A DNA stretch of 64,000 nucleotides from Macrostomum lignano (GCA_002269645.1 NIVC01002974.1:62001-126000); one strand, 5' to 3'. Positions 934 through 52,369 are shown, counted from the stretch's first letter. Made by a program: numbers and translations. Notes: generated by a model from the sequence alone, not told the origin.

Positions 934-1123
934 TGATGTGTTTGGAAATGAAATCGTAGTGTTAATTCGTAAAGTAATTTGTATATTTATTTTCACTCCG
1001 AAGAGTGGAATCGTAAGCAAGCGCAGTTCTGAGAAAACAAAGTTCGTCTGGGCCGTCTCTCTTTCAAGAGAGCAAACGTTAGGAGGTTAGGCCATAGATG
1101 TGCTTCGACTAAACCACACATCA
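934..1123 (-). repeat. 3' LTR of Gypsy element
   Basis: TGATGTGT...ACACATCA; matches 5171-5360 at 189/190 by eye. Confidence 0.97.
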
Positions 1124-1136
1124 TCTTCCCCCTCCT
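1124..1136 (-). promoter_or_regulatory. Polypurine tract
   Basis: AGGAGGGGGAAGA on the minus strand, immediately before the 3' LTR. Confidence 0.9.
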
Positions 1137-1152
1137 CAAGAGAGTCTCATTC

Positions 1153-4100
1153 TTATAGTTCTTCGATTAGCCGTCTTGGGGGTATGCCTTTATTCATTCG
1201 ACCAGATCGCCGGGCTTGCGGGTGCTGGACCCTTGTGGTGGGCTCCAGGTCAATGTTGACCGTCGACGCCTGGGCCGGCCTGAAGGGAACCAGGTTCCGT
1301 GCAGTCCAAACTTTTCCATTGTCGAGGCGATAGGTGAATCTGCCCAAAACTTCTTGAATGAGGAAGGGTGACGTAAATGGTGATTTGCCTTTCGGCACAT
1401 GTGGGAGTCGGATGCGCACCATGTCGCCCAGTTTGAAATGTTGCCGAGTACTCGTTCCCGCTCCAGTTGCTTTCGGGTCGCTAGAATCGCAGCTCTTTAG
1501 CTCCTCCGCAATTGGCTTCTCAATTTCTAGTTTACGGGGCTGAAACTTTGTTCGGATATCCCGCCCTAGCAGCAGTCGTGCTGGTGAGTCGCCGTCTTCG
1601 TTAGGCGTCGTCCGATAGCTGCAGATGACTTGCTGCATTCCCTCTTCGAAGCTTCTCTTATCCGCTTCAAAGGTTTGCGCAGCATGCTTAAGTGTCCGGT
1701 TAAAAACTTCTACTTTACCATTTCTTCTTGGCTCATATAGCGGAACGCAGTCATGCCTGATGTCGCGCGAAGCGAGGAAGTTTTTCATTTCAGTGGAGAC
1801 GAAGCTGCTTCCATTGTCGGACACCAGGACATCCGGGTTTCCAAAACGGTCGAATGTTTCCGTCAGCCACTTGATAATCTTCGCCGATCTGATGTCTCCA
1901 GTCAGGAGAATTTCTGGGTAAGACGAGTAGTAGTCTATCAAGGCAACAATAAATCGCTGAGTTTGAGGAGCTATCGCGAATGGGCCAGAGATGTCGATTG
2001 CCAGCTTTGACCACGGGCGCTCAGGCTTTTGTATAGAATTCCCGTCTGGTACAATGACTCTATGGGACTTTGCGCTGTCCTGACAAGCTAGGCAATGCTT
2101 GACGTAGTTATTGATCGCTCTGTCCATACCTGGCCACCAGTAAGCAGATCGCAGGAGACGCTTCATCCTCACAATGCCGGGGTGTCCTTCATGCGCGCGT
2201 TTTAGTATTTGCGGTTGTAGTTTAGAAGGCGGCACAATTTGTTCGCCACGAAATAAAATGTTCTTGTCAATTGTCAGTTCATCCTGGACTTGTCGAAAGG
2301 CACTAGCTTCCGATCGTTTGTCGATAGGTCTGGAGAGTCGCGTAGCTTCCATTACAATCTGCAATAGCTCATCGGTCTTCGTCAGTTCTTGCAAGTTCTG
2401 CATATTTATGTTAATTGCACTGCTGACTGCAAGGATGCTCTTGACCGTATTTTCGTTGTCCATATCGACATCTCTTATTCCGTCGTTAATGGGGAGCCGC
2501 GAAAGGGCATCAGCCACCTTGTTGGTGCTTCCTGGCTTGTAGATAATATCGTAACTGAATTCGGACAGTCTTACAAGCCAGCGAGTGAATTTAGCTGATT
2601 TTGTCTTATTAGTGTGGTGTCGAAGAAGACTTGTGAGCGCTGAATGATCGGTCTGCAGGGTGAACTGCCGTCCAAGCAGATATTTGGCAAAATGCTCACA
2701 TGCCCAGACGCAAGCGAGGGCTTCGTGCTCGTTCACTGCGTAGTTTCGTTCCCTATCAGACAGTGTGTGTGACGCGAAAGAGATAGGTACTTCGTTACCA
2801 TTCGGCTGTCGTTGCGAAAGGACCGCTCCTATTCCAACATCTGATGCGTCTGTTGTCAGGATCGTCGGCAAGTTTGGGTCAAAAATAGCCAGTTCAAGGC
2901 GTTCGTGGAGCAGCGACTTCACTCGTTCGAAGGCTTTTTGCTGCTTTTCTCCCCAGATAAACCTCTGGTGCTTTCTTGTCAACATTCGTAGGGGCTCTGT
3001 AACGTTAGCCAAGCCTGGCAGGAAGTTCGAATGGTAGTTGATCAATCCAAGGAAGGATCGAAGTTCTTCGGAATTCTTCGGTGCCGGTGTATTCTTGATA
3101 GCCTCTAGCTTCGCGGGGTCGGACTCGACGTTCCCAAGTTCGTTGATAATGTAGCCAAGGAAAGGCACTCGTTCTTTTCGGAGTATTGACTTGGCGGTGT
3201 TGATTCGGAAGTCTTTTTCGTGCAGCAACTTCAGAACCTTCCTTAGTTCTTCGTCGTGCTCCGCGATGGTCTTTCCGAAAACGAGAATATCGTCAATGTA
3301 TGCAATCGTGTGATCACAACCAACTAGTGTGTTGCTAACGCATCGTTGAAATACGGATGTGGAGTCCACCAAGCCCATTGGCAGTCTATTGTAGGCATAA
3401 AGTCCGATCGGGGTTGCAGTTGTGGTTAAATGCTTGCTTTCTTCGTCCAGCTCAATGTGGAAGTAGGCGCGCTTTAAATCAATCTTAGACTTGTAGCGGG
3501 CGCCTCGGAGCTTCAGAAAGAGGTCGTTGATGTTTGGTACGGGGTACCGGTCAGGGACTACAAACTTGTTCAGGTGCGACAGGTCAGTTGTAATCCGTAC
3601 GCTTCCGTCGGCTTTCCACACGGTAACCAAACCGTTGACCCACGAACTTTTCTCGATTGGGCTCCAGATTCCGCATTCCTCCATTTGTTTGATCTCTGTG
3701 ATGGCAGCCTCTTGGCGGGCAAACGGAATTGTCCTAGTGGGGATGCACTTGGGAATTGCATCAGAGCGAATTGTAATTTTATGTGTGTGGTCCGGGAAGG
3801 TTCCCAGTGACTCCTCGGACAACTTAGGAAATTGTTTTTTGACCTCGCTGAATTGGTCAGAAATGGCTGAAACCTGCATCGATGATCCGTCGAACTTCAG
3901 TCCCAGGAAGTTGATGAGATCCAGGCCGACAATTGCTTTCAGGCGATCCTGCGTGACGAACAAATTCGCTTCGACTGAACGATCTAGGACCCTCACATTT
4001 GCTGTGATACAACCAAGGACGTCCGATATGCTAGAGTTGTCGTAATTCACAAGAGAAGAGGATGTCGGCTTGATTTTGCACTCTGGCCAAATGCGCTTGA

Positions 4101-5145
4101 GGTCGGACTTTCGGATAGTCGATACTTCGGCAGCCGTGTCGAGGAGAGCGCTGTAGCTGCCTCTCTTGCCTACAAGGGTGACTTCGACGGACGGCGTCTC
4201 GTGTCTGCTGACCAGTCCCACCTTCTCGCGGACATGGTTGACGCTCTTCTTCTGGGTTCTCCTCTGGGATATTATACACTGCGCTGCAAAATGGTTAGGT
4301 TTTCCACATCCTTTGCACAATTTTCCAAGGGCTGGACACTTTGGGTCACGATAGAGATGAGTGTTGGATCCGCAACCCATGCACTGCTTATTATGTTGTT
4401 TTCCCTTGTCAAAGCGTGCGGGTGGGGCACCGGCATCTGCTTTCCGTCGACGTGGCGGCCCACTTTTAGAGCTCGGCTGGCTTTGCACTTGCTGAACTGG
4501 GGCTGGAGCGCCGCTTCGGATTATCTGGCCGGTCTCGGTGGCTGCTTCATCGGCCCGCATAGCGGTCAGAAACGTCTGCAGATCGATGGCTTGCTCAGTT
4601 AATAGCTTCTCCTGGGTGCTCTTTGACGCGCAGCCGATGACAAGCTGCATTGCCAGTTGGCGGTCTTCGCCGGCTCCGTACTCGCAGTCCGTGATTAGCG
4701 TGCGAAGGGCAGTAAAGTAGTCATTTACCGACTCGCCCGTTTCTTGCTTGCGGCGTCGAAACTCATGTTCGGCTCGGACGGGGTTTTTCGCCGTTGAAAA
4801 TATTGGCTTCAGCTCATCGACATACTCTGTGAAGCTGGAGTTCTCTTTGTCCGTCACGCAGTGTGCGTAGAGAATTCGTCTTCCTTCAGACCCCAAAGAC
4901 GTACGCAGAAATGCTTTCTTAAAAGCCTCCGAGAGCTGTGTGCCTGTTGTCGTCTCTGTAAGGTAGTAGAAATCCGATACCTCTCTTTGCCAGATGTCCC
5001 ACTTGGTTGTCGGATCGCCAGGTAGCTCCAGAAACTTGGACGGTTGGGGTATTGAGACGCGGATTGCTTGGTGATTCGTCGTCGAGGCCAATGGTTCTTG
5101 GCTCGTATTCGGCTTTCCTACCGGCGGTGGCGTCTTTGGCGGCAT
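1153..5145 (-). CDS. Gag-Pol polyprotein (two zinc knuckles, protease, RT, RNase H, integrase)
   Basis: Uninterrupted ~1330-aa ORF from the ATG at 5145. Motifs in order: CMGCGSNTH and CKGCGKPNHFAAQC, LLDTAA, YIDDILV, TDASDVGIGAVL, HEGHPG...CLAC, IDISG/VSDNG/GKVEVFN. The PR-RT-RH-IN order is Ty3/Gypsy. Confidence 0.96.
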   Translation of the reverse strand: MPPKTPPPVGKPNTSQEPLASTTNHQAIRVSIPQPSKFLELPGDPTTKWDIWQREVSDFYYLTETTTGTQLSEAFKKAFLRTSLGSEGRRILYAHCVTDKENSSFTEYVDELKPIFSTAKNPVRAEHEFRRRKQETGESVNDYFTALRTLITDCEYGAGEDRQLAMQLVIGCASKSTQEKLLTEQAIDLQTFLTAMRADEAATETGQIIRSGAPAPVQQVQSQPSSKSGPPRRRKADAGAPPARFDKGKQHNKQCMGCGSNTHLYRDPKCPALGKLCKGCGKPNHFAAQCIISQRRTQKKSVNHVREKVGLVSRHETPSVEVTLVGKRGSYSALLDTAAEVSTIRKSDLKRIWPECKIKPTSSSLVNYDNSSISDVLGCITANVRVLDRSVEANLFVTQDRLKAIVGLDLINFLGLKFDGSSMQVSAISDQFSEVKKQFPKLSEESLGTFPDHTHKITIRSDAIPKCIPTRTIPFARQEAAITEIKQMEECGIWSPIEKSSWVNGLVTVWKADGSVRITTDLSHLNKFVVPDRYPVPNINDLFLKLRGARYKSKIDLKRAYFHIELDEESKHLTTTATPIGLYAYNRLPMGLVDSTSVFQRCVSNTLVGCDHTIAYIDDILVFGKTIAEHDEELRKVLKLLHEKDFRINTAKSILRKERVPFLGYIINELGNVESDPAKLEAIKNTPAPKNSEELRSFLGLINYHSNFLPGLANVTEPLRMLTRKHQRFIWGEKQQKAFERVKSLLHERLELAIFDPNLPTILTTDASDVGIGAVLSQRQPNGNEVPISFASHTLSDRERNYAVNEHEALACVWACEHFAKYLLGRQFTLQTDHSALTSLLRHHTNKTKSAKFTRWLVRLSEFSYDIIYKPGSTNKVADALSRLPINDGIRDVDMDNENTVKSILAVSSAININMQNLQELTKTDELLQIVMEATRLSRPIDKRSEASAFRQVQDELTIDKNILFRGEQIVPPSKLQPQILKRAHEGHPGIVRMKRLLRSAYWWPGMDRAINNYVKHCLACQDSAKSHRVIVPDGNSIQKPERPWSKLAIDISGPFAIAPQTQRFIVALIDYYSSYPEILLTGDIRSAKIIKWLTETFDRFGNPDVLVSDNGSSFVSTEMKNFLASRDIRHDCVPLYEPRRNGKVEVFNRTLKHAAQTFEADKRSFEEGMQQVICSYRTTPNEDGDSPARLLLGRDIRTKFQPRKLEIEKPIAEELKSCDSSDPKATGAGTSTRQHFKLGDMVRIRLPHVPKGKSPFTSPFLIQEVLGRFTYRLDNGKVWTARNLVPFRPAQASTVNIDLEPTTRVQHPQARRSGRMNKGIPPRRLIEEL

Positions 5146-5155
5146 CGGTTCGCAA

Positions 5156-5168
5156 ATCCTCGTCGCCA
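5156..5168 (-). promoter_or_regulatory. Primer-binding site, tRNA-Ser(GCU)-complementary
   Basis: Minus strand TGGCGACGAGGAT, 2 nt from the 5' LTR. It complements the 3' end AUCCUCGUCGCCA of metazoan tRNA-Ser(GCU), recalled from memory. Confidence 0.8.
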
Positions 5169-5170
5169 AT

Positions 5171-5360
5171 TGATGTGTTTGGAAATGAAATCGTAGTGTT
5201 AATTCGTAAAGTAATTTGTATATTTATTTTCACTCCGAAGAGTGGAATCGTAAGCAAGCGCAGTTCTGAGAAAACAAAGTTCGTCTGGGCCGTCTCTCTT
5301 TCAAGAGAGCAAGCGTTAGGAGGTTAGGCCATAGATGTGCTTCGACTAAACCACACATCA
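5171..5360 (-). repeat. 5' LTR of Gypsy element
   Basis: Direct repeat of 934-1123; adjacent to the PBS. Confidence 0.97.
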
Positions 5361-19225: not shown

Positions 19226-22019
19226 GACAATAATACAGTCACTAATACAGTCGCTGAACAGACCATAAAATACAGTCAGTAAACAGATAATAGTACAGGT
19301 ATATATAAGCAGGTGAAACATGTATGTATAATTGGAATTTATAAAGCAGCCCTCATTGAGAGTAGGTTGACTGCATCTTAACTGGGCTAAAAGAGTTTGT
19401 GAATGGTGTATAGGAGCTGCTCTATATACCCTGTGGTTCCAGACTCTAAAAGGAGCATTTGCAGTCAAGCTCTGTAGCAGCCTTAAGCAGAGCGGAGCGA
19501 CTTAATGTTTGGTTTGAGAATGAATGTATCTACCTTTGCTTACACCCAATGCATGCAATTGAGCAGTGACGCGAGTCGGCAGGTAGTCAGGATGGCATAT
19601 ACATGTACATTTTTGTACTGCTAAAGCTATACTGGCTGCTTGTCGATGGCACCATCTGCTGAAGCGACAGTCTATCCTTTTGTTCATTAATTATTATTCA
19701 ATACATTATTTTAAATTTTCACCTGCTATTAGCAGCAGAAGATCATATTATATCATTTGAATAAATACATGCGTTTGTTTAACTATTGTTTCACTTTTGA
19801 ACGTCAATTTTCGGTTGTTTAAAATCTAATTAAAAGCTCGTACCGTTTGTTGTTTCTTTATTTGTTGTAGTTCGTAAAAGTACAGTTGAATAAAACTGTT
19901 AATTTTTACATTTACTGTGTATAATATTTTGTTAAACTAACAGAAATGTTTATTACTTCGGCGAATTTATTCACGCAGTTTCGTATCACCCTACACTCAA
20001 AGTATGCAAGTATTAAATTGTACGCGTATATGCACGTTCTTTGTATTGACGTTCTATGGCGAAAATAAATAAAGCTTAAAATATCTCACGTCATTAATTA
20101 AGAATATTCTGTTCACAAAAATTTGGTGCATAAGCGCTCACAAACTTATGCAAATGTCAGGCTGTAGGGTTAGTGTTAGGGTTGGTGTTAGCCAGGGTTT
20201 AGATTTAGTGTTTAGATTTAGATTTAGATAGAAATAATGGAAGCGTCGTGAAAAATAATGGAAGCATCATGCAAACAATCATAGAAGCACCATGCAAAAA
20301 CTCGTGAACAGAATATTAAATTAAGGGTTATGGTTAGGGTTAGAAGTTTGACAGGATATTTTTTCAGATTTCAAGGCTGAGCTACATGTAGCTTATTAAA
20401 AAACGTGTATTGCATTTCTTTTGCTCCCCAACGGGGGGCGTTGATTGCTAGTATCTCCTAAAATTCCAGAAAAACCTCCACGAATTCCAGACTCCATCAT
20501 TCTCAACATTTCTTCATTCTGTATCAATTCTAATTTAATTCCTGTAAATTTTAAAGCACAATTCCAAGCTAATCCAGAAAGCGAATAACAATATGCTGGG
20601 TCTATTCTGAAGTATTCTAACAACGTGGATCTAAACTTCTCGAATGCACTAACAAAATCAAATATAAATCTTTTATCTTCTTCAGATAATATAAATGGAG
20701 GTTTTAGAAATCTAGATCCGTCTAAAAATACAACTCGACTTGTATAATTCCCACAGGTTATTGCAACATGATCTTCGGATGATTTCGAAATAAAGTTAAC
20801 TTTATATATTTTTTTCTAATCTTGTTGAAGGTTCGACAAGATAGTTGAGATCGATTCAAGATTCATTAAGAAGAAATAATGGAATAGTTTGATTATTTTT
20901 ACCCTCTTTTGTATTACAAGATTGACATGCTGCTTCTCGATATTTTCCATTATAATGATTATGCTCTCTAACTTTTACACATTCGTCGAAAGATCTCGAA
21001 CATAAAAAACAATTTGTCGTTTCCCTATAAATATTTTCTTCCTCTTCTGACAGATTAGGGTTAGGGTAATTATTCATAAGTTTTTTCACATGCTCAAATC
21101 TATTTAACACAGTATTAACAAAATCATTAATTTCGTTCCCGTAGTATATTAGATTTTTTAAGAGTTTAGGGTAGTGTGAACGAATGTATAAAGTCCAATT
21201 TGATAATTTCTCCGTTGAATCATAATCTAATATTGCAGAAAATACTAAGGCCTTTCTAACACTCATGTAATGATTTTTAAATTCTATTGTGGTTTTCTTT
21301 TTTGGAATTTCTATTATCGTTTTAAAATCAGTACAAATATGATTATCGAGTGCTTTTTGAGAATATTTAATTTGAAGACATTTTCTACATAAATAAACTT
21401 TATTCTTAGTAGTAAGAAATGTTTCTAAATTAGTAATTAGACAATAATGCCCTTCAACAAGTAGTAGATCAATAACTTTGGGATTATTATATTCTTCTGT
21501 CAATCGAATTAAATAAAGTGTTTCATTCTTTGTTTTATCTCTCAATCCAAAAACATTTATGTGAAGATTTTTCAGCTTTTCAATCTTTAAAATATCTTTG
21601 ACATTTATTGGAAAGTTTAAATCACCAAATTTAATTTCATTTACAAATTCTACATATTTTCCAACTCTATATCGATGCTTTTTTACCGGATGAAGTTTTG
21701 CTAAAATTGACCATAGAAAACACCTAATATCTGTGTTCTTTACATTTAATATAGCATTTGTATTAATAGGAATTTTAATATATGTACCTCGTGATCTCAA
21801 TTGATTAACTCCAACAATTTTTAATTTTATCTTTTCTAATTCAAAAAACATATAACCAGAACCTTTTTCAATAAACTCATCCTTCCACGCTCCGAATTCA
21901 TCGAGAATATCATCGAAAGTACTTTCAATAGACTCTTCGATTCGGAGGAGGTTAAAAATAGTTCTATATTTAAAATGATATTCAAATTCTATAAAATTAT
22001 CATCGCATTGCATCGTGAG

Positions 22020-23273
22020 TCAGATGTTGCAATCGAACTCATTCAGATGCTTGTGCATCTCCTTTAGTTCGTCTTCAGTGCCGGCGAAGACCATAAAATG
22101 TCGTCAATGTAGCGCTTGAAGAAACGAGGGGTAAACGGAGCAGCTTCTGAAGCTTTGGATTCCCAGGCAGACATAAATATGTTGGCGTAGGATGGCGCAA
22201 AGGCCTTTCCCATGCTTGTGCCTTTGACTTGAAGGTAGCGCGTGTCGTTGAAAACAAAATCATTTTTGTTCAAGTTAATGTCCAGGAGCGCAAGAAGATG
22301 GTTATCTGGCCTTGAGGTTTGGGGAAATGTTTGAAAGGCATCTCTAATGGCGTCCATCCCCTTATCAGTGGAAATATTAGTGTACAGGGATTCAACACCA
22401 TTGTAACCAGAAAGACATTTTCGTCTTTTCAAAAATCAAATCATTAATAGCCGCTTGAAAGTGGTCCGTGTCTCGGATGAAGGAGTCTTGTTCCTTAGCG
22501 ATCGGCTGTAGGAAGAGATCGATAAATTTGGCGCCCATGTAGCTTTCCGAGCTGCAGTCCGAGACAATGGGTCTCCCAGGAGGCACTCCAGGAGTAGGCC
22601 ATTCTTCGGAATCCTTATGGATTTTTGGCAAAAGGTAAAAAATTCGATCTCTTGGAATAGTTGGCGGAATCAGTTGCAGGTATTGATGATTAGTAATTAT
22701 CTTTTCTTCTTTAAGATCATGAAAAATGGCTTTGATAATGGCACTGGTCTGGGCGCTCATTGCAGTGTCAAGGGGTTGGTAGAAGGTCCTGTTGGAGAGC
22801 TGCCTGTTAGCTTCCAGTATGTAATCAGTTCGATTCATAACGACCATATTGCTGCCCTTGTCGGCAGGTTTAATGACGATACTGCTATTGTCTCGAAGAG
22901 TCTTCAGTGCCATTCTCTGCTGCTCCTGAAGGTTTGGCTTGTTGTGTATGATTCTTGGAATCCTAATCCTGTTTAGGCTTTCAAAAAGGTCTCTGTGAGA
23001 GCGCCACTTGTCCAAGTTGATGTTGGGGATCGAAGCTCGGCCAGTATAAGGGATGCGCGGGGTGTAAGCACACGCACACGTGCGACGCTGAAGCAGGGAG
23101 TTAAGAACTATTCTCTGCTTTAAAACCTTGATGGGGTCAGAAAGGACGCTGGACCCCATAACAATTGGGGCTGGCACAAAGTTCTTCCCCACTCCTAAAA
23201 TTTCGGTTTCGCAGTCAGAAAGACGATAATTCGATAAGTTCAAGACTTGGTTGCTAGCCGCATTTCTAAAAAC
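22020..23273 (-). pseudogene. Penelope-type reverse transcriptase
   Basis: VLNLS, IVIKPADKG, FYLLPKIHK, PGRPIVS, VESLYTNI, GTSMGKAFAPSYANIFM, RYIDDI. Frameshifts near 22400-22430 and 22100. Confidence 0.9.
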
Positions 23274-24848
23274 CTACAAGTTTTTTTGCACTTTGCCGTA
23301 GACAAAACTGAAGACCTCCAAGGCCGATTGGTCAGATAGTGTGACCTTGTCTGACAGGAAGGTCAAACCCTGTCTGGGTAGTGACATGTGCCCCTTCTGG
23401 TTGAGATTCTGGGCATAGCGGTTCAATTTTTCCACGTTGCTTCGGACGCTGTCCGTTGCCTCGGCATCCACCACTGAGTCAAGTGTGTAGATATTTGCCT
23501 CTGGAAAGGCCTTGCGACAATGATTCACGATTGTCGTGAGCTGCTTGTCGAGGACACCTTCAAATTGTCTCGACAGGTCATGACCACAAGGGAAGAGAAT
23601 GACCGCTTTGACAGCTGAGCTAGGGTTTTTCAACTGCTCACGCAGCACCCTGATTAGGTTCTCAGCGCGTAGATTCGGAAAAATTTCAAATTGTACATCT
23701 GGGTGCGCTTGCCCGGGCTCAGAGAGACTCTCATCGCCGATTGCGATCGTTGACTTTTCGATAGGGGTCAGTTTCCAGTCTTTCTTAAGTCCCCTATGGA
23801 CGTTAATCTGGCTTGGTTGAGCAAGTGCCGATCGAGGAGGGGTCAGCTCAAGACTGTCCCTATTGTTGTCACTAGTAAGCCTGGGTGGCTCAGCGCAAGC
23901 AAATCTACTCTGTAGAACTGCATCGTTGTCGGTGAGTGTCGCAAAAGACACGGAAGAGTCAGCCTGGCTGGCATCGATGTTGTTGCTATTAGCAGCAGCT
24001 GGGGATGTCTGGTCACAGACCACCCCCGTGTCAAGCCCCTGGTCACAGGCGACTTGACTCTGCTATTGACGACTCGAAGTCAAGATGGCAGGTATCGGAA
24101 TAGCTGATTCGTTTTGATCAGCAGCAATGGAGTTTACAGGTGGAGGTGTCTGGTCACAGACCACCCCCGTGTCCAGCCCCTGGTCACAGGCAGCTGGACC
24201 CTGCATTTGCGTATTGAACCCTTCAGGCGGCTCTTCTGTCGGAAAAATCGGCGGGCAAGCTTGGTTGTCCTCGTCCGTATGGCTTAGCACGCTCGGTTCC
24301 TCGTTAAAGCCTCGCCAGTCGGGAGATTCTTCCATGCCCGTTGAAGGGCTGGAGGGACGATTCCCTGCTGGTTGCTCCCTCCCCTGCTCAGTTGTCACAG
24401 GGCTGGCGGCTTGGTGGGGTTGATTCGAACCCACCACCCCAGACAAGAGGTTTGACACGGGAACCCCCATAGAGTTGGTGGTTTGGTTACTTACAATCAC
24501 AGTATCAAAAGAAGAGATAGTCCTACCTTTGTTAGCATTAAATTCAGGTACCTTCAGCTCGATGGACATTTTTTTCAACCGGTATAGCAGCAGATCAGGG
24601 CTGTAGCTGAATCTTCTGCCGAGGTCCTTCGCCGCCCAGTGAAAACCGACTTGCCAGCCGGTTTCCCAATCAGAAGGGTCAGCGTCCTTCCTGGCTTCCA
24701 GAAGTTCAGCAGCTGGATGATGGATGCTGATCTCATAATGGCTCTGCATTGTGTCTAGCGTGCTGACTTCCCACTGCTCGGCGTTCTCAGCAATCCGCGA
24801 TTTTGTCGATAGATAGATAGATAGTAGATAGCTGAATGTATCTACCAA
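23274..24848 (-). CDS. PLE N-terminal region/ORF1 with an SGNH-hydrolase-like domain (internal TAG at 24063)
   Basis: The 24063-24848 and 23274-24023 ORFs share one frame. IAIGDESL, IFPNL, VILFPCGHD and LSDKVTL resemble SGNH blocks I, II, III and V. Duplicated ACDQGLDTGVVCDQT. Confidence 0.55.
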
Positions 24849-24996
24849 TCAAGCTGAAAGTACGCACACAAGATCACCGGAAACGATTAAGGCAGCTGGA
24901 AAGCCAATGGGCGCAGTAAGCGCTTTTATCCAGAGGAACTACCTGCTGGAACCAGCCATGCCGAACGAAAATCAGACTACTCAAGTAGTGCAAAAG

Positions 24997-25663
<667 letters not shown>

Positions 25664-25798
25664 GAATTATATCGATATGAAAAGTACTTCAAAACATTGA
25701 ATTACAAGGTAAGTGCGCGTGTATCAGAGAAAAAAAGATTTAGTTCTCAAGTCTGTCTTGGCTAAATAAACTTCACTGGTACAAACCACGAAATCAAA

Positions 25799-26278
25799 TT
25801 AAATTAAAAGGTGGCCACCAAAAATTGAACAAGTGGCCACCAGCAGCAGCAACTTACCGTTGGTGTAGCTCAGCCGGAGCACCCGGTTTCGCCACATACC
25901 TCCGCAGTTCTGGCCCCAGTTTCCACTGCAGGTATCGCTGCACTCCCAGTAAGGAGCAGCGCCCTGCGACCCGTAGGAGTTGCCGCAGTGGCACCAGTAC
26001 GCGGCCTGCAGAGCCGCGAACTGGAAGCCGCCCAGAGCGCAGGCGCTGCTGCACACCTCGCGAGTCATCTGACCGCAGTTGATAGAATCGTATATCTGAG
26101 ATACCTCGGAGCTGCCGATCCGTGTGAGGCCGATGTTCTTCATGCCACCGACGTCTCTCACGCCATTCGTGCCGTCAACGAAGCAGCCGAGGTCCGAGAT
26201 CTGGAACTCCCGGCAGAGAGCGGCGCAGATCAGGCAGCTCAGGATCGGAGCAGCGCAGAGGATCCGGCAGAGAGGCAT
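25799..26278 (-). pseudogene. WSC-domain exon only (truncated copy lacking the PAN exon)
   Basis: Near-identical to 28329-28749, GTAAGT donor. Downstream sequence jumps to a region homologous to ~27210-27295. Confidence 0.75.
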
Positions 26279-26489
26279 GGCCAGGCTGGGTTTGTCAGTT
26301 TGGCAGAAGATTGCCGAATCTCTGTGCGAGAGGCTAAATAACAGCAGCCTTATTGATGCGTTGCCATGGAGACTCTCAGCAGGCAGCGGGTTGGTCCGCT
26401 GCAGGTTCTCGTTGCTGATTAAGTCGAACTTTATGATGCGTATTCTATGTTAATATATATATTCTATTCTGACATTTTTGCTATTTTTA

Positions 26490-26764
<275 letters not shown>

Positions 26765-27923
26765 GCATTGCGCAGTGGTGGACTGTTTCTTACATTTGAC
26801 TAAATGAGTTCCCAATCCTGGCTGGAGTAAGTTGGCTCTCGCTACTCTAGCGAACGGCTGCTCTATCGAACGGCTACTCTAGCGAACGGCTGCTCTGGCG
26901 AACGGCTGCTCCATTTCATGACTCACTGTCGAGTACTTCTGTTACCTTCATCGCCACGTTGCATGCGGCACCCCAGCCTCAGCTCTTTTGTCCTCGCTGT
27001 CCTTATCGATTTACAGAATTTTTCTTCTAATAACTGTGTGAAGCTACTGTAGTTAGTAGCGCTTGCAAAGCTTGCAGGAGTAGAATTACCTGGTAGTTTA
27101 GTGATTGATGATTAGCGATTATGTTAAAATATCAACTCTCAGTGTCAGAAAAACAATAGGAGGAAGTCCGCAAATGACTAAAAACTTTCATTGCAATGAA
27201 CTGAGGAATTATATTGATACAAAAAGTACTTCAAATAATAAGTTCGCAATTCTGTCTTGACTAAATAAATTTCACCAGTACGAACCACTAAATTAAATTG
27301 AATCAAAAAGTGCATTGAAAGGTGAGTACTCGTAAGTTTCGGGCTTCAAAAAAGAAATGTAAAATCCTGTGTCCTTTGCAAAAAACTGAAGGTGTGCAGA
27401 ATTCGGCGGCCAGCCGCTTGTATCCGAGTAGCAGGAAAGTTGAGTCTTCAAAAGATTACAAAGCTGCTGTTTGAGAGGGAACCAAAGGCAATAAATAACT
27501 ATAACACGCCAATCAATTTCTCTGGTTTTGAATCCTGACAAAAATATCCGATTGCACGTAAAACTACTCTGTTCTAATCAACAATTAACAGAACAAAAGC
27601 AGAAATCGAATGCCTAACACACAGAAGTGCATTCGCAAAGATTATAAAGGAAAGTACATTAAAACATTTTGGTAAAAGTAAAAAAGGTTTAGCATTTTCG
27701 GATGAGAAGCAAAAATAGGTTCGCGTTCAATTTCGGCCAGTTGATTTCAGACGCAGACGTCTACAGCTGTTAGTACTTTGAGTACTTTTGAGTACTTTAA
27801 AGTCTTTGAGTAGGCTTAGGTATGCTTGCTAGTTGACACTGTTTGTTTTGATTTGCCTCTAAATTTCGGTTCTTACAGCTCGTCTGCTCTGCTCAGCTGC
27901 ACCAGCACCTGCTTCATTCGCAC

Positions 27924-28749
27924 TCAGCCACGGACAAAGAAGTCGCCGCTGCTTTCGCTGCTGAAGGCGGCCGGGACCGCAGCATACTCCAGCAGGTGGC
28001 ACAGGCGCTGCTGCTGGCTGAAGATCACCGCCTGGCAACCGGAACTTTTACTGGAGCACAGAGACACGCACTTGATCCGACTCGGAGCGCTCACAGTCGT
28101 AAAGTTCAGCGCATCAGGGATGTTGAGTTCGACGAAATTCCGGTTGCCGCGAACAAAGAAGTCATTACCTTCGATTTGCAATGAAATAATTTGAAGTTGA
28201 GTTGAGTTGAGCCACTGAAAGGCATCTGATTGTCTGCTTAAAAGTTTGTTTGTCTGGCGCCAAAATCCAATGCAGCAACATACGAAGAACAAAAATTAAA
28301 CAAGTGGCCACCAGCAGCAGCAACTCACCGTTCGTGTAGCTCAGCCGGAGCACCCGGTTTCGCCACATACCTCCGCAGTTCTGGCCCCAGTTTCCACTGC
28401 AGGTATCGCTGCACTCCCAGTAAGGAGCAGCGCCCTGCGACCCGTAGGAGTTGCCGCAGTGGCACCAGTACGCGGCCTGCAGAGCCGCGAACTGGAAGCC
28501 GCCCAGAGCGCAGGCGCTGCTGCACACCTCGCGAGTCATCTGACCGCAGTTGATAGAATCGTATATCTGAGATACCTCGGAGCTGCCGATCCGTGTGAGG
28601 CCGATGTTCTTCATGCCACCGACGTCTCTCACGCCATTCGTGCCGTCAACGAAGCAGCCGAGGTCCGAGATCTGGAACTCCCGGCAGAGAGCGGCGCAGA
28701 TCAGGCAGCTCAGGATCGGAGCAGCGCAGAGGATCCGGCAGAGAGGCAT
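27924..28749 (-). CDS. Secreted WSC-domain + PAN/apple-domain protein (copy A), 2 exons
   Basis: Signal peptide (ILSCLICAALC), WSC (LGCFVD...MTREVCSSAC...FAALQAAYWCHCGN...CSDTCSGN...CGG), donor at 28328, PAN-like exon (CVSLC...CQAVIFSQQQRLCHLL). Acceptor position uncertain. Confidence 0.82.
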
Positions 28750-29775
28750 GGCCAGGCTGGGTTTGTCAGTTTGGCAGAAGATTGCCGAATCTCTGTGCGA
28801 GAGAGAGGCTAAATAACAGCAGCCTTATTGATGCGTTGCCATGGAGACTCTCAGCAGGCAGCGGCTTGCATATCGGTAAACAGAGCTCTGTCAGATGATG
28901 CATTAGTCGGATTGAAATCCATCAGCTCCATACATTAACTCTGTGATTATTCAGAATCAGTGAGCTGTGAGATCATTCGGAGCCTCAAATTGCTTTTTCA
29001 CTGCAACATCAAGCTTGCAGCAGCTGCTCACAGATGCATGAGCTTTAGTCGAGATCTATTATCGGTTGCGCAGGTGTTGTCGAAGCCACAAGGCCCACCG
29101 TCAGTTTGCATCAATAAATGAATTTAATTCTACTGCAGCGCTCAGTTCGTGAGTTAGAGATGATAGAGCAGAGTGGCGATGCATGAATAGGACAGACTGA
29201 AGCTCTGAAGATTTTAAAATTTTTCGGAAGAAATAAATGAGAAAATTTTTTTTTATCAGCTAAAAAGCTTGGGACTCAGTTAGTCAAATGTAAGCAGCAT
29301 TCGCCCACTGCGCAATGGTGTTGCTTAACGGAATGTAGAACAAAGCAATTTTTTTTAATGAAACGTCCCGAAGAGTCAGGTGCATGCAACACTGGGAGTC
29401 GAGGGATGCCCAGTTGCACGAAGGAAACACAGGCTTACTGATCAATTTTGTTCAATAAAATATTCCAAACCCTGCTGTGCCGCATCAAAAGGCCCAGAGG
29501 CATCAAATACGCTTGTTACCGCCTGAGCGGAGAGCGGAGCCCGAGAGTGATCCTGGCGGCTCATCAGGCTGATGACAATTCTTCTCCAGCGTGTGTAACA
29601 TGACTTGAAGTTTTCTGTGATTTTTTAACCGAAATAAATTGAGGACTTTTTACAGGGCTTCCAGCTCTGCATCTTCCGGACCGAGTTTTGCTGCCCATCA
29701 GCAGAGCAGAGCAGGAGCTGCTGCAGCCACCGGGCGTGTCAGGCTCTCACACCACGAGCCTTGCTTCCATTCTGG

Positions 29776-30299
29776 GGGGTCTTTCTCGAAAGCAACTTAC
29801 GATCGACCATAGACGTAAGTTGGGTAAGCTACACTTACGGGTTGCTCGAAGGGCTCGCAAGTTAGCTATGCGTAAGATTGATCGCAACTTTACGAGTTCG
29901 TAACTTTGCGCAAAAGACTGTTTCTCGAAACGTTCGTATGTCTATGGTCTTTCGTAAGGTTGATCTTAACCCTACGACTGCTCGGTATCAGTCGTAAGAC
30001 GCACTTAAGCACTAATCGCATAGTACGTGAAGCTTTAGTCAAGCCAAGTCAAGTTAAACTTTATCGAAGGTGGGTCTTTCTCGAAAGCAACTTACGATAG
30101 ACAAAGTAAAGATATTTACAGATTTATGACCATAGACATGCAACTTTTCGTTTCAGATACGACTTACGAACAGCGTAAGCCACGCAAAGTCTAAGTGAGT
30201 TTTGAGAAAGCGTCTTACGAGCAAACTTACGCTACACGTAAATTTCTTTCTTACGATCTAACTTACCATAGAATTTACGTGAGTTTCGAGAAACACCCC
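29776..30299. mobile_element. ~520-bp TIR element (MITE), present only in copy A
   Basis: TIRs GGGGTCTTTCTCGAAA and TTTCGAGAAACACCCC, with an internal extra left-end copy near 30072. Absent at the paralogous site near 49050. Confidence 0.75.
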
Positions 30300-31559
30300 T
30301 TGTGCGCGGTCATATAAGGTTGAGGCTTGTGCGACAAAAGTTCACAGACGTTCCATTGGGACGCAACTCCGACTTTAATTTTTTGACTGACCGACACAAG
30401 AGACGGAAAATCAGGCCGAGACCATCTTTTTTATGGTCGGTATCGTCGGGTCGATTTTAAACGAAAAAATAGCACGAATCATGCACAAACTTTTCTCTCC
30501 GATTTTCATCGACATTCAACTGTATCAGTAGGACCGACTTCGGCACGAATTCCGGAGAACGAACAACGGAGAATGTGAAAAGCACTGAGGTAGAGGTATT
30601 TAAGATTTTTCAAGTCGCTGTAAGAAAAGCAACTAAAAGAATGGTGCAAAAATTCAAGAGATTTAAGAAATCGCAAGTTTGTCGAAAACATTATTTTGGT
30701 GGGGCATAGACTTGAGCCGCAATGGTCTTGGTGCTGCTGTTATGGGATAGCGGGGGAAACATAACATGCTGTGCTAGTGTTGCAGAGAATTTAATTTTTC
30801 AAATTTAAGGACAGACAGTCCCTCTGGAGGCAATCCCGATTGTTGGCAATGGTGTCATTCCACCATGCACTGTCAGTTGCGCTCTCTGCAAACTTATCTT
30901 TGCTACGATACTACGATACTAGTCACCCTTACGCCATTGGCCTGTCCCCAAATTCTTGAAATGATCCGAAAGTGCACCCTATTCTGATACTCATTCTATA
31001 CTTGGCATTGGTACAAATTGGTACAGATTGGTACAAAAGTCTCAGACAGCCAGCCGACTTTCTAGGGTGAAAATCATGTCCTAAACGGTTCAAAGTCGGA
31101 CCGAAAGTGCATTTCATGAATTTTGGCCCGAAATCGAACTAACAGCCCGCAAAATGTCGGAGTTGCGTCCAACGACGCAACTCGCCCAATTATTGTCGTG
31201 CGATTCGCCGAGTGTACAAGCCTGACGATCAGAAAGTCAGGGCCGCTGTACATCCTGTGTGTGCTTGCGTACAGTATTGGTGTGACCAAGGAGTCCGCGA
31301 AATGGGCAGGATTGACTCAAGAGAGCCTGAGGCATCGATCCAAGTCAACTGCTGGCAAACTGATCTGTAAACAGCGTGTAGAATAAGAGATTATTAAGCA
31401 AAATTAAATCAGCAATTCAGAATTCGCTGCGCTATGGTAAATATGGATGATTGGAATTGCACATTCGAGCTCGAACACTGCGATTCATAAGGCAATCAAT
31501 GGTGACAGACGACAGGCAATCGCTTGTCTTTGCAAAGCTGGCTGTGTTTCTGTTTGTGT

Positions 31560-32605
31560 CTGTCTGTCGCAGTGTCTGCCAGTCCCAGTGTCTGCCAGTC
31601 CCAGTGTCTGCCTGTCCCAGTCTCTGCCTGGCCCTGCCTGTCCCTGCCTGTCCCAGTGTCTGCCAGTCCCAGTGTCTGCCTGTCCCTGCCTGTCTCTGCC
31701 TGTCCCAGTGTCTGTCTGTCCCAGTGTCTGTCTGTCCCAGTGTCTGTCTGTCCCAGTGTCTGTTTGTCCCAGTGTCTGTCTGTCCCAGTGTCTGCCTGTC
31801 CCAGTGTCTGACTGTCCCTGCCTGTCCCAGTGTCTGCCTGTCCCTGCCTGTCCCAGTGTCAGCCTGTCCCAGTGTCTGTCTGTCCCAGTGTCTGTCTGTC
31901 CCAGTGTCTGTCTGTCACAGTGTCTGCCTGTCACAGTGTCTGCCTGTCCCTGCCTGTCCCAGTGTCTGCCTGTCCCAGTGTCTGCCTGTCCCAGTGTCTG
32001 TCTGTCCCAGTGTCTGTCTGTCCCAGTGTCTGTCTGTCCCAGTGTCTGTTTGTCCCAGTGTCTGTCTGTACCAGTGTCTGCCTGTCCCAGTGTCTGCCTG
32101 TCCCAGTGTCTGCCTGTCCCAGTGTCTGTCTGTCCCAGTGTCTGCCTGTCCCTGCCTGTCCCAGTGTCTGCCTGTCCCAGTGTCTGTCTGTCCCAGTGTC
32201 TGTCTGTCCCAGTGTCTGTCTGTCCCAGTGTCTGCCTGTCCCAGTGTCTGTCTGTCCCAGTGTCTGTCTGTCCCAGTGTCTGTCTGTCCCAGTGTCTGTT
32301 TGTCCCAGTGTCTGTCTGTCCCAGTGTCTGCCTGTCCCAGTGTCTGCCTGTCCCAGTATCTGTCTGTCCCAGTGTCTGCCTGTCCCTGCCTGTCCCAGTG
32401 TCTGCCTGTCCCAGTGTCTGTCTGTCCCAGTGTCTGCCTGTCCCAGTGTCTGTCTGTCCCAGTGTCTGTCTGTCACAGTGTCTGCCTGTCACAGTGTCTG
32501 CCTGTCCCTGCCTGTCCCAGTGTCTGCCAGTCCCAGTGTCTGCCTGTCCCAGTCTCTGCCTGGCCCTGCCTGTCCCTGCCTGTCCCAGTGTCTGCCTGTC
32601 TGTCT
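31560..32605. repeat. 16-bp minisatellite (CCCAGTGTCTG[C/T]CTGT)
   Basis: Tandem array; source of spurious Cys/Pro/Ser-rich ORFs. Confidence 0.97.
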
Positions 32606-33166
32606 TTCGGTCTGTCAGTCAGTGAGGCGGTTCATCCATATCTTATGTTTTCACTCTTAAAATCTCTTCTCGTCTCAATGAAGATAAAGGTTAGGAGTTG
32701 TAAATCAGGTGAACAATTAAGGTCATATAACCATTCGAAATCAGCATAAGAATCACACATCATAAAAAATGATTAGAAAATTTCAGCAGAAAATGGTTGA
32801 ACCTAAGAATCAAGCAGAATTCCGCATACCAGTTGGCCTGAAGATTCGCATTTATCATGCCAGTGAATCGTGATGAACTGCATGCAATTTTATTAGTACT
32901 CATAGAGCTAGCAGAAACGCGATGATACCTGCAGTGATTTGCCTAATTCAGCTAAATATTGCAGTTGTCAGAAAGTTTCTGTTTCAATCATCTCGTTCGT
33001 CACTTCTGCTCGTCCCCCAGCCACCGCCTGAAGGCAGCCACCTGCTGGCGAACGGACTCCAGGGCGGTGCCGCCGAAGGCGCCGTACTGCTCAACGCTCG
33101 TCTCAAAGTCCCACAGCTGGGTGACTTCTTCGCCGAATTTCTCGCTGCGGGATGATTGGGGACAGA

Positions 33167-33247
33167 GGTCAGTCAGTCAGTGGTCAGTCAGTCAGTCAGT
33201 CAGTCAGTCAGTCAGTCAGTCAGTCAGTCAGTCAGTCAGTCAGTCAG
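33167..33247. repeat. (GTCA)n in ASL-A last intron
   Basis: Tetranucleotide run. Confidence 0.97.
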
Positions 33248-33639
33248 CTGCTCACCTGACAGTCTGGAAGTCCTCAAAGGTCAGCTGGTGCAGCTGGCAG
33301 ACCTTGGCTTCGGCCAGCGCCACGCAACGCCCGGAGGCGGCGTGGGCCTCTCTGAACGGCACCCCGCGGCGCACCAAATAGTAGGCCAGATCCGTGGCCA
33401 GCATGTCGCAGCTGAGGGCGCCGGCGCAGGCCTCCGGGTGCACCGTCAGGGTGGCCACCACGCCGTCGGCGATTCGAACCACGGCTGACACGGTGTCAGC
33501 TGAGTCGAACAAGCCCTCCTTGTCCTCCTGCAGGTCCTTGTTGAAGGCGCTGGGCAGGGACTTCTGCACCATGAGCAGGGACACCAGGTGGCCGCACAGC
33601 CGTCCGGTTTTGCCGCGGATGAGCTCCAGACTGTCCGCG

Positions 33640-33671
<32 letters not shown>

Positions 33672-33879
33672 GCTGTACGCGTCCGACAGCGTGACGAAGC
33701 CGAACTCCTTGCTGCAGAAGAGGATCAGGTCCTCGGCGAGGCGGCTCAGGTGGTTGCCAATCATGGCGGCCGCGAACTGGAACTCCGAGGCGAAGTCGCG
33801 GTCCGCCACGGCGTCCAGACTGTTCCAGGTGACCCCAGAGGTGAAGCCGAGGGCGTCTGGGATTTTTGATGGGGCTGGT

Positions 33880-35235
33880 TAATACCTGTTAACGATTCTA
33901 AGAATACCTGTAGACCATTCTAAGAATACCTGTTGACAATTCTGAGAATACCTGTTCACGATTCTAAGAATACCTGTAGACCATTCTAAGAATACCTGTT
34001 GACAATTCTGAGAATACCTGTTCACGATTCTAGGAATACCTGTAGACCATTCTAAGAATACCTGTTGACAATTCTGAGAATACCTGTTCACGATTCTAAA
34101 AATACCTGCTCACGATTCTAAGAATACCTGTAGACCATTCTAAGAATACCTGTTAACGATTCTAAGAATACTTGTAGACCATTCTAAGAATACCTGTTAA
34201 CGATTCTAAGAATACCTGTAGACCATTCTAAGAATACCTGTTAACGATTCTGAGAATACCTGTTCGCGATTCTAAGAAGACCTGTTCACGATTCTAAGAA
34301 TACCTGTTAACGATTCTAAGAATACCTGTTAACGATTCTAAGAATACCTGTTTACGATTCTAAGAATACCAAACCCTAATTCCGCACACCCCAATTCCTA
34401 ACACCCAATACCCCACACCCCAATACCCCACACCCTAATTCTCCACACCCAAATACCCCACACCCAAATACCCCAACACCCCAATTCCCAACATCCAATA
34501 CTCCACAACCCTATTCCTCACACCCAAATACCTCACACCCCAATTCCCAACATCCAATACTCCACACCCCTATTCCTCACACCCTTATTCCCCACACTCC
34601 AATTTCCCCACACCCAATACCCCACACCCAAATTCCCCACACCCCATTTCTCCACACCCCAATACCCCACACCCCAACTCCCCACACCCCAATTCTCCAC
34701 ACCCCAATTCTCCACACTCCAATACCCCACACCCCAATACCCCACACCCGAATTCCCAACACCCAATTCCCTACACCCCGATTCCTAACACCCAAATACG
34801 CCACACTCCAATACCCCACACCCAAATTCCCCACACCCCATTTCTACACACCCCAACTCCCCACACCCAAAGTCCCCAATACCCCACACCCCAACTCCCC
34901 ACACCAAATTCCCCACACCCCAATTCTCCACACCCCAATTCTCCACACCCCAACTCCCCACACCAAATTCCCCACAACCCAATTCTCCACACCCCAATTC
35001 TCCACACCCCAATACCCCACACCCCAATACCCCACACCCGAATTCCCAACACCCAATTCCCAACACTCAATTCCCAACACCCAATTCCCCACACTCCGAT
35101 TCCCCACACCCAATTCCCAACACCCAATTCCCAACACCCAATTCCCCACACCCCGATTCCCCACGCCCAATTCCCCACACCCCGATTCCCCACACCCAAT
35201 TCTCCACATCCCGATTCCCCACACCCAATACCCCA
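33880..35235. repeat. Intronic satellites: 22-bp (AAGAATACCTGTTAACGATTCT), then ~15-bp C-rich (CCCCACACCCCAATT)
   Basis: Two adjacent arrays fill the ASL-A intron. Confidence 0.93.
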
Positions 35236-35486
35236 TCCCTCGCCCTACCGGCCAACGCCTGCCTGTCCACCTCGAAGACGTTGCCGGCCAGGGCGCCGCT
35301 GCCCAGCGGGCACACGGCGGTGCGGGCCCGGCAGTCGGCCAGTCTCTGGCAGTCCCTGCGCGGCATGGAGGCGTAGCTGAGCAGCCAATGGGACCAGCGC
35401 ACCGGCTGGGCCCGCTGCAGGTGGGTGTAGCCCGGCATGAGCACGCCGGTCTCCGACTCCGCCCGGCTCACCAGGGTGTTGATGAG

Positions 35487-36457
35487 ATAATGAGGGGTCA
35501 GTCCCCCCTAAGCTACCTGGATAATGAAGGGTCAGTCCCCCCTAAGCTACCTGGATAATGAGGGGTCAGTCCACCCTAAGCTACCTGGATAATGAGGGGT
35601 CAGTCCCCCCTAAGCTACCTGGATAATGAGGGGTCAGTCCCCAAGCTATCTAGATAATGAGGGGTCAGTCCCCAAGCTACCTGGATAATGAGGGGTCAGT
35701 CCCCCCTAAGCTACCTGGATAATGAGGGGTTAGGCCCCCCTAAGCTACCTGGATAATGAGGGGTTAGGCCCCCCTAAGCTACCTGGATAATGAGGGGTCA
35801 GTCCCCCCTAAGCTACCTGGATAATGAGGGGTCAGTCCCCCCTAAGCTACCTGGATAATGAGGGGTCAGTCCCCCCTAAGCTACATGGATAATGAGGGGT
35901 CAGTCCCCAAAGCTATCTAGATAATGAGGGGTCAGTCCCCCCTAAGCTATATGGATAATGAGGGGTCAGTCCCCCCTAAGCTACCTGGATAATGAGGGGT
36001 CAGTCCCCCCTAAGCTACCTGGATAATTAGGGGTCAGTCCCCCTAAGCTACCTGGATAATGAGGGGTCAGTCCCCCCTAAGCTACCTGGATAATGAGGGG
36101 TCAGTCCCCCCTAAGCTACCTGGATAATGAGGGGTCAGTCCCCCCTAAGCTACCTGGATAATGAGGGGTCAGTCCCCCCTAAGCTACATGGATAATGAGG
36201 GGTCAGTCCCCCCTAAGCTACCTGGATAATGAGGGGTCAGTCCCCCCTAAGCTACTTGGATAATGAGGGGTCAGTCCCCTAAGCTACATGGATAATGAGG
36301 GGTCAGTCCCCCCTAAGCTACCTGGATAATGAAGGGTCAGTCCCCCCTAAGCTACCTGGATAATGAGGGGTCAGTCCCCCCTACGCTACCTGGATAATGA
36401 GGGGTCAGTCCCCCCTAAGCTACCTGGATAATGAGGGGTCAGTCCCCAAGCTACCTG
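35487..36457. repeat. 34-bp minisatellite (GGATAATGAGGGGTCAGTCCCCCCTAAGCTACCT)
   Basis: About 28 copies, directly abutting the truncated ASL exon. Confidence 0.96.
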
Positions 36458-39703: not shown

Positions 39704-40482
39704 TCAGCGGCGGACAAAGAAGTCGCCGCTGCTGGCGCTGCTGAGCGCGGCCGGGACCGCAGCAAACTCCAGCAGGTGGCACAGGCGCTGCTGCTGGCTG
39801 AAGATCACCGCCTGGCAACCGGAGCGGCACCGGTACAAGCACTCGGGCAGCCCGGCACACTGCAGTGTTCTGAAGGCGGGCGCATCCGGGACGCTCAGCT
39901 CAACGAAGGTCCGGTTACCGGGAACGAACACGTTCCGGTCTGCAGTTTAAAATGAGCGCCAGTTGCATTAATACCAAGCCTTTCTACATAGAAAGCAATT
40001 TGTACTTTTAACCTACTCATGCAAGCGTCTTCCGAACTGCCCGTGTAGCTCAGCCGGAGCACCCGGTTTCGGTAGTCGCCTCCGCAGTTCTGGCCCGAGT
40101 TTCCACTGCAAGCGAGATTGCATTCCGAGTCAGAAGCAGCGCCCAGCGACCCGTAGGACTTGCCGCAGTAGCACCAGAATGCCGACTGCAGAGCCGCGAA
40201 CTGGAAGCCGCCCAGAGCGCAGACGCTGCTGCACAGCTCGTGAGTCATTATCGAGTAGCTGCCGACAAAAGCGCCACTGGCATCGTTTATCGGAGATACC
40301 TCGGAGCTTCCGATCCGTATGAGGCCAATGTGCTTCATGTCATTGACGTCTCTCACGCCATTCGCGTCGTCAACGAAGCAGCCGAGGTCCGAGATCTGGA
40401 ACTGGCGGCAGAGAGCGGCGCAGATCAGGCAGCTCAGGATCGGCATGCCGGTCCTGTACAGAGCCGGCATGGTAGGCTGCAT
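39704..40482 (-). CDS. Secreted WSC + PAN/apple protein, diverged paralog C (exons 40482-40017, 39939-39704; ~233 aa)
   Basis: Same signal/WSC/PAN cysteine pattern. A 77-bp GTAGGT...CTGCAG intron gives an open spliced frame. Confidence 0.85.

Positions 40483-52337: not shown

Positions 52338-52369
<32 letters not shown>

Follow-up and report, generated by a model that had tools for sequence, protein, structure and literature searches.

How a Penelope-like element (PLE) gains access to its reverse transcriptase (RT), when a stop codon stands directly in front of it, is the question raised by a locus of Macrostomum lignano. The window analysed here, a stretch of 64,000 nucleotides (GCA_002269645.1, NIVC01002974.1:62001-126000), contains three minus-strand stop-to-stop ORFs in a single frame, namely 24848-24063 (261 aa), 24062-23274 (262 aa) and 23273-22392 (293 aa), which are closed by TAG (24065-24063), TAG (23276-23274) and TGA (22394-22392), respectively. 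The initial annotation had interpreted these as a PLE with a lipid-binding ORF1, an SGNH-like domain in frame with the RT and, possibly, programmed UAG readthrough between the two. The ORF list and translation bear out the common frame and both TAGs, the junction KVQKNL*VFRNAASNQVLNLS reads as quoted, and the assignment to PLEs is supported by the conserved N-terminal motifs of PLE-type RTs (sequence matches, RVT_1, atlas). The middle ORF had been started at 24023, which lies 39 nt inside the same ORF, whose true stop-to-stop start is 24062. Similarly, the statement that the frame is broken only by two TAGs holds for the ORFs down to 22392 but not for the whole RT, which has suffered three 1-nt deletions (at about 22427, 22398 and 22096, two of them in homopolymers) and thereby falls into four frame segments, with a further TGA at 22022-22020. 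The ORF end at 22392 is thus owed to a frameshift within the RT, and an RVT_1 match is found in the second RT piece.

The features of the element and its immediate surroundings are compiled in Table 1. The element occurs once in the window and is a dead copy, truncated at both ends. Its match to the family ORF1 HMM sets in no earlier than position 112 (of 381), where a (CTAT)n patch lies at about 24800-24830; in the ORF1 N-part, a conserved helical domain (about 24810-24560) gives way to a Ser/Pro/Gln linker of low complexity. At the other end the sequence is cut at about 21985, where the open frame of an unrelated AT-rich broken ORF, presumably resembling the DNA polymerase B region of Maverick/Polinton elements, joins the last RT segment. 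A search with domain and RT as query, the stop being read as X, against longer proteins yielded 209 matches at E≤1e-3; PF28514 is present in the 120 listed of these, most of which also possess RT and GIY-YIG domains. Owing to the break at about 21985, the window lacks the C-terminal GIY-YIG endonuclease, which in such PLEs has a Cys pair between GIY and YIG (CCHH) and is present in 109 of the 120 lineage RTs listed; the region corresponding to the CX2-6CxxC pattern, found in 100 of the 109 lineage RTs with an endonuclease, is likewise missing. In the accessible text of one study, a CX2-5CxxC zinc-finger-like linker between RT and endonuclease is given as a feature of the Neptune clade, common to Nematis too (PMC8557442). 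Endonuclease-bearing PLEs also feature pseudo-LTRs and a hammerhead ribozyme; Rfam searches detected no hammerhead and nothing meaningful in 19500-27000 of the window, where both element ends are missing, and no hammerhead in five related loci.

Table 1. Features of the Penelope-like element and adjoining sequence in the window.
Feature	Position	Strand	Evidence or remark
ORF1 N-terminal part, 5' truncated	24066..24848	(-)	BLASTP to family ORF1 N-parts, best E 9e-10; HMM E 2e-14
TAG inside ORF1 linker, context R-Q-stop-Q-S-Q	24063..24065	(-)	relatives continuous there
Direct repeat of a 73-nt unit (two units, 86% identity) coding for ACDQGLDTGVVCDQT; two hairpins per unit	23996..24209 (23996-24068, 24137-24209)	(-)	folding
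Predicted SGNH-fold domain with degenerate catalytic residues, ORF1 C-terminus	23277..23780	(-)	profiles, AF2, Foldseek
Candidate slippery heptamer A_AAA_AAC in ORF1 register; -1 frame reads K-K-L	23280..23286	(-)	codon-level heptamer scan
TAG ending ORF1, 3 nt after heptamer, at the usual family ORF1 end	23274..23276	(-)	family ORF1 ends
TAG closing the -1 frame four codons past heptamer, this copy	23266..23268	(-)	-1 frame open 6 codons
PLE RT N-terminal region: NLS..GxxFVP, IKPADKG, FYLLPKIHK, 12-aa insert, GRPIVSD	22430..23273	(-)	sequence matches, atlas
Remaining RT core, three further frame segments, YIDD near 22105	21985..22429	(-)	truncated before thumb and GIY-YIG
(CTAT)n microsatellite	24799..25660 (short patch about 24799-24830; long array about 24997-25660)		patch at ORF1 5' break; array upstream
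Unrelated AT-rich broken ORF at RT break, endonuclease-VII-like motif	20396 to about 21989-22019	(-)	ORF search, domain matches

Profile searches and structure prediction indicate that the middle ORF holds a real SGNH fold (alpha/beta/alpha). A profile built from six fused relatives, with the window excluded, finds this ORF at E 1e-15, and a nine-row family profile including the window has the ORF1 esterase of ZfL2-1 (PDB 4C1B) as the best of 11 PDB matches (E 1e-8), in agreement with the proposed kinship to the ORF1 esterases of LINEs. The AlphaFold2 model of the domain (pLDDT 84.6, pTM 0.81) retrieves PAF acetylhydrolase and other SGNH hydrolases as top Foldseek matches (TM 0.74-0.78, E 2e-7), and in the atlas the domain falls with GDSL clusters at 0.93-0.94. 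A direct Pfam scan of the domain reached Lipase_GDSL_2 at E 0.07-0.16 only, and a word-indexed search with the domain alone gave nothing among 46 candidates. The motifs GDES, FPN, CGHD and DKVT are present as quoted earlier, and the reported lack of the catalytic His is confirmed, its column being occupied by T; the loss is wider, with E at the nucleophile and H in the Asn column of block III. In the family alignment the catalytic columns of the window thus read E, H, D, T versus S, N, D, H, the Asn column being D if shifted by one. By its residues, the domain is best regarded as an SGNH-fold pseudo-enzyme and is not classed as an active esterase.

The position at which ORF1 ordinarily ends can be judged from its homologues. 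A profile of the domain matches 1,947 representatives (50%-identity clusters) at E≤1e-3, which indicates a very large lineage, the weaker matches possibly including LINE esterases. Among the best 150 of these 1,947, 142 end shortly after the domain, six continue into RT (three of them seeds of the profile) and two, left out of the analysis of end positions, end inside the domain. The anchored non-seed ORF1 ends (n=145, among the best 150 of 1,947) lie 5-34 aa after the last Trp, 115 of the 145 at 5-9 residues, and L-N occupies Trp+4,5 in 86 of 145; sharp modes at 5, 6 and 9 residues argue for real stops, though some could be contig ends. Judged by these ends, ORF1 of the family normally terminates where the window has its TAG at 23274, and a stop at this place is fixed in the family. 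As to the TAG at 24063, the first ORF of the window matches the N-domain of the same ORF1 proteins (91 long ORF1s compared). In relatives this domain and the SGNH domain belong to a single ORF, which the TAG interrupts here. It looks private and is most likely a nonsense change confined to this copy, probably derived from a Gln codon.

Strong hairpins follow the 24063 TAG (folding z -4.1 for 24065-24000). A role as readthrough signal was weighed and dropped, as relatives are continuous there and because the same 73-nt unit is also present 141 nt further upstream, where it follows no stop. Each of the two units forms two CUG-UGAC-CAG hairpins (z -4.1), and the duplicated unit could be an RNA signal.

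DNA junctions between ORF1 and RT were found in relatives by a GTDB scan, which gave 13 loci with Penelope-like sequence (L001-L013), most likely eukaryotic contamination contigs in bacterial assemblies. Five of these have both the domain and the RT, one of them twice, and L002 holds a tandem partial second copy of the element. At all six DNA junctions, from five elements, the RT lies in the -1 frame, and at none is it in frame behind a stop. In-register heptamers occur 0-12 nt before the ORF1 stop: T_TTA_AAC (L002, L004), A_AAT_TTC (L005), G_TTA_AAT (L001) and G_GAT_TTA (L003). GTT and GGA are tolerated first triplets in slippery heptamers; perfect heptamers are present in three of the five relatives, and in all five if the GTT/GGA variants are counted. 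Against a background of 21 perfect heptamers in 3,546 codon positions, the probability of at least three perfect ones in five is about 2e-4. Past the heptamer, four elements show no stop in the -1 frame over 600-764 codons; in L004, where another shift follows, the open stretch is 48 codons long. No Met precedes the conserved RT N-terminus in four of the five (first Met at aa 189, 392 or 414, or none in the open stretch), while the RT frame of L003 has a Met at aa 16. In -1 frameshift signals a stimulatory hairpin or pseudoknot usually lies 5-9 nt downstream. A significant stimulator structure is found in one of the five, L002 (z about -2.1 in a 45-nt window, weaker at 65 nt), and a crude pseudoknot scan detected nothing above shuffles in the window or in the relatives.

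Traces of the same layout are visible in proteins. The lineage RTs, defined for this comparison by a 12-14-aa insert between IHK and GRP and an N-extension of at least 16 aa, show F/K/G-K-L in 19 of 54 cases; among the 64 PLE RTs used as controls a single one does (p 6e-7 by Fisher's test, on rows that are not phylogenetically independent). The trace sits 10-32 residues before the NLS motif and equals XXX-AAA-C in the -1 frame. In a codon-level test for overlap, 14 of the 54 lineage RTs indicated the -1 frame, five frame 0 (fused), none +1 and 35 no frame, while all 64 controls indicated no frame. Among the FKL cases, eight of the 11 that could be scored have four preceding residues equal to the ORF1 Trp codon in the -1 frame, a pattern that start-codon calling favours. 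Read from sequence, the lineage therefore appears to make ORF1 and RT by means of a -1 frameshift layout, with ribosomes presumably slipping at the heptamers of the relatives; programmed readthrough does not hold up as the mechanism of the lineage.

The junction of the window copy carries both elements of this layout and a deviation from it. A_AAA_AAC is the only perfect in-register heptamer among the 803 codon positions of 22431-24848, and it is followed by one codon and the ORF1 stop; as in the family, K-K-L is encoded in the -1 frame. This frame closes after six open codons, so that it is not open downstream in the window copy, versus 6/6 junctions of the relatives, and the RT lies in frame 0. 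An in-frame UAG between ORF1 and RT is present in this copy only. The base after the UAG is G, and three windows behind it give no gain in structure over shuffles (z 0.54, -0.06 and -0.04); a stable structure about 8 nt after the UAG, as is typical of gammaretroviral readthrough, was not found in the window. A weak hairpin (-5.8 kcal/mol, z 0.4) starts inside the stop codon, 4-5 nt past the heptamer. The first Met of the RT frame is residue 39, after the conserved N-terminal motifs. The heptamer had gone unmentioned in the initial annotation.

Some relatives carry ORF1 and RT as one protein. The domain precedes the RT in nine of the 120 listed matches (of 209); six are continuous ORFs derived from contigs, and three are fish gene models, apparently spliced in this region. 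The fused proteins form clades, P0002/P0003/P0164 (support 100) and P0006/P0032/P0033 (97), with P0007 apart, which points to about three origins of fusion rather than nine. Among non-seed domain matches they are rare, amounting to three of 147 (among the best 150 of 1,947). The window RT belongs to the lineage with the 12-14-aa insert (support 100) and sits on a long branch outside the two supported fused clades, its identity to anything found being at most about 41-43%. A first tree grouped it weakly with P0007 (83, with long branches meeting) and a second gave no resolution; both trees were built by a quick method and show the window on a long branch, the second leaving out seven rows that did not match the motif cut. 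Both S and H are kept in 139 of the 142 terminating ORF1s (S, D and H in 136 of 142), in all five -1 loci and in two of the nine fused proteins, and are not kept in the window. A dead esterase is thus typical of frame-0 lineages, and its loss of catalysis upon permanent fusion to the RT is a possible rule. As an observation on the fused proteins themselves (P0002, P0003, P0164, P0006, P0032, P0033, P0007, P0171 and P0172), the catalytic S and/or H is lost in seven of nine versus three of 142 free ORF1s.

In retroviruses and LTR elements, gag and pol are coupled by -1 frameshifting, in gammaretroviruses by UAG readthrough. We favour, as a probable if far from assured explanation, that the window holds a Neptune-like Penelope element with an esterase domain in ORF1, whose expression relies on -1 frameshifting and of which this particular copy has acquired an indel of its own. 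The element would be a Neptune-like, endonuclease-type PLE with two ORFs: in ORF1, a long linker of low complexity would join a helical N-domain to the SGNH esterase-fold domain at the C-terminus, and ORF2 would be the RT (with GIY-YIG in relatives). Most ribosomes would terminate right after the esterase domain and release free ORF1 protein, while a minority would slip back one nucleotide at a heptamer of the form X_XXY_YYZ, located a few codons ahead of the stop, and produce an ORF1-RT-endonuclease fusion, much as in retroviral gag-pol. The window copy would have retained the heptamer and the natural ORF1 stop, and a private indel within about 12 nt past the heptamer would have put the RT in frame 0 and so mimic a readthrough junction; we infer that frame 0 is a private lesion. 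The in-frame stop is thus more likely damage to a frameshift signal than a new readthrough mechanism. The three other 1-nt indels of the copy count in favour of a private junction indel, and the position of the window RT, nested in neither well-supported fused clade, counts for -1 frameshifting. Several points count against it: the window esterase lacks S, N and H like the fused relatives, which keeps the rivals in play; the RT indels of the copy are all 1-nt deletions versus a junction that needs a net +1 or -2; no significant stimulator follows the window heptamer (z 0.4 and -0.1), and only one of five relatives has one; and one quick tree groups the window RT weakly with the fused P0007.

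Programmed UAG readthrough in a sublineage is an unlikely but serious competitor. Here an indel fixed behind the ORF1 stop would have turned an ancestral -1 junction into one that is passed by leaky termination, as in gammaretroviral gag-pol. It places the stop at the natural ORF1 end with the RT directly in frame, needs no additional private lesion, agrees with the dead esterase that accompanies frame-0 lineages, and accounts for an RT frame that has no Met before its conserved N-terminal motifs and hence needs recoding. Given the long isolated branch of the window RT, the distant relatives may not speak for it. Against readthrough count the six junctions of relatives, none of which has this layout, and the signals of the copy itself, the context being UAG-G and the structure standing at shuffle level. 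A stimulator spaced 4-5 nt past a heptamer fits frameshifting rather than readthrough; accordingly, the hairpin that starts in the stop codon suits the former, and a perfect heptamer has been kept although slippage there ends the protein four codons on. A switch of the sublineage from -1 frameshifting to UAG readthrough, which we consider doubtful, would, within the reach of our searches, be without precedent among Penelope-like elements; the lineage would then possess three couplings of ORF1 to RT (frameshift, constitutive fusion and readthrough), and the esterase would become a non-catalytic module in frame-0 forms.

Somewhat less probable still is a single, constitutively fused ORF (ORF1-pseudoesterase-RT-endonuclease) that an ordinary nonsense mutation would have interrupted at 23274, as another did at 24063. 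Fused proteins do exist in supported clades, most of them lack S and H as the window does, and the copy has two other in-frame stops; yet a random nonsense mutation would have had to hit the usual ORF1 end, one codon past a perfect heptamer, fused forms are scarce among the domain matches, and the window RT stands outside both supported fused clades. We regard it as improbable that the RT is produced without ribosomal recoding, whether by splicing at the TAG/G of 23274, by re-initiation or, in relatives with the -1 layout, by slippage of the transcribing polymerase along the A/T run. By eye TTGTAG|G fits the 3' splice consensus, but A-rich bases instead of a pyrimidine tract precede the AG. 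The first Met comes after the conserved RT motifs, and the heptamers of the relatives keep in step with the ORF1 codons and follow the XXX-YYY-Z rule, two constraints that would be superfluous under splicing or polymerase slippage. In favour of this reading are the weak stimulator structures in four of the five relatives and the introns known in PLEs, according to a figure legend (PMC8557442, Fig. 1). The gradings of these four readings are rough judgements and were not computed. More solid than any of them are the lineage-wide -1 layout and the catalytic loss in fused forms, readthrough being a minority reading for this copy.

A lipid-related ORF1 with an SGNH domain has been reported from PLEs before. 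The available text of PMC3905857 reports an ORF1 esterase at S383-S538 of Neptune1_Ren, a Neptune-clade PLE of the sponge Amphimedon, which resembles the window element in being a PLE with a long ORF1 that ends in an SGNH esterase domain. Compared by description, the two differ in that conserved active sites are stressed there (PMC3905857), whereas S, N and H are lost in the window; the passages available give no account of the way in which ORF1 and RT of Neptune1_Ren are coupled. With the ORF1p esterases of ZfL2-1 and of CR1, L2 and RTEX (PDB 4C1B, the best solved-structure match of the family profile) the lineage shares the position of ORF1 upstream of the RT, but ORF2 is of LINE type there and a PLE RT here. 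The same source describes the ZfL2-1 enzyme as active and liposome-binding, its ORF1p binding liposomes regardless of active-site mutations (PMC3905857). By analogy, ORF1 may act in RNP assembly or membrane targeting even if catalytically dead.

The Athena PLEs of bdelloid rotifers have GDSL ORFs, some of which, as in Athena-L, are described in the accessible part of the report as lacking catalytic residues (PMC5408684), and a figure legend mentions a frameshift with pseudoknot as a way in which the ORF1 of a PLE may be set apart (PMC8557442, Fig. 1). Athena/Terminon elements thus share with the window lineage a PLE RT and GDSL ORFs that are partly non-catalytic, but they are telomeric and have no endonuclease, whereas GIY-YIG is present in 109 of the 120 RTs listed for the window lineage. 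It is reportedly Athena to which the separation by frameshift and pseudoknot refers; in the window lineage the esterase is the C-terminal domain of an ORF overlapping the RT, and no pseudoknot was detected. Retroviral -1 gag-pol resembles the relatives in the X_XXY_YYZ heptamer before the ORF1 stop and in the RT in the -1 frame, but the lineage is not an LTR element and lacks protease, RNase H and integrase; from gammaretroviral readthrough the window differs in that the signals of readthrough were not found. Endonuclease-bearing PLEs are described as single-ORF elements, with no mention of SGNH in the accessible text (PMC8557442), and the accessible part of a killifish Neptune preprint has two ORFs and mentions neither frameshift nor esterase; the passages available from PMC7998251 and PMC5718144 contribute nothing further. 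For esterase-bearing Neptune-like elements, titles and abstracts (a scope beyond which lie Repbase reports and subscription journals) gave no case of -1 frameshifting or readthrough.

The copy in the window is itself a dead fragment, and its significance lies in the lineage. A gag-pol-like layout seems likely, in which an esterase-tipped ORF1 would be made in excess and a -1 frameshift would lead into RT and endonuclease, versus the single-ORF view of endonuclease-bearing PLEs. The lineage also provides a set of natural eukaryotic candidate frameshift signals, seemingly without strong stimulators; repeat libraries and gene models may misread such elements, as the layout suggests, and the catalytic loss linked to fusion bears on what retroelement esterases do.

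Further observations concern the neighbouring sequence. The same 14-nt word was noticed by eye at about 24840 (-), just before the ORF1 5' break, and at about 19530 (-), about 5.3 kb downstream, probably by chance. An intact Ty3/gypsy-type LTR element at 934-5360 (-) has 190-nt terminal repeats that are 99.5% identical and a single gag-pol ORF of 1,356 aa; this intact ORF suggests that the lesions of the Penelope-like copy are not a general assembly fault. A coding segment for a WSC domain (Pfam E 5e-10 in the first copy) is repeated at 25819-26393, 28290-28868, 47571-48149 and 40043-40443, within a larger duplication in which about 27058-35900 occurs again at about 46339-54100.
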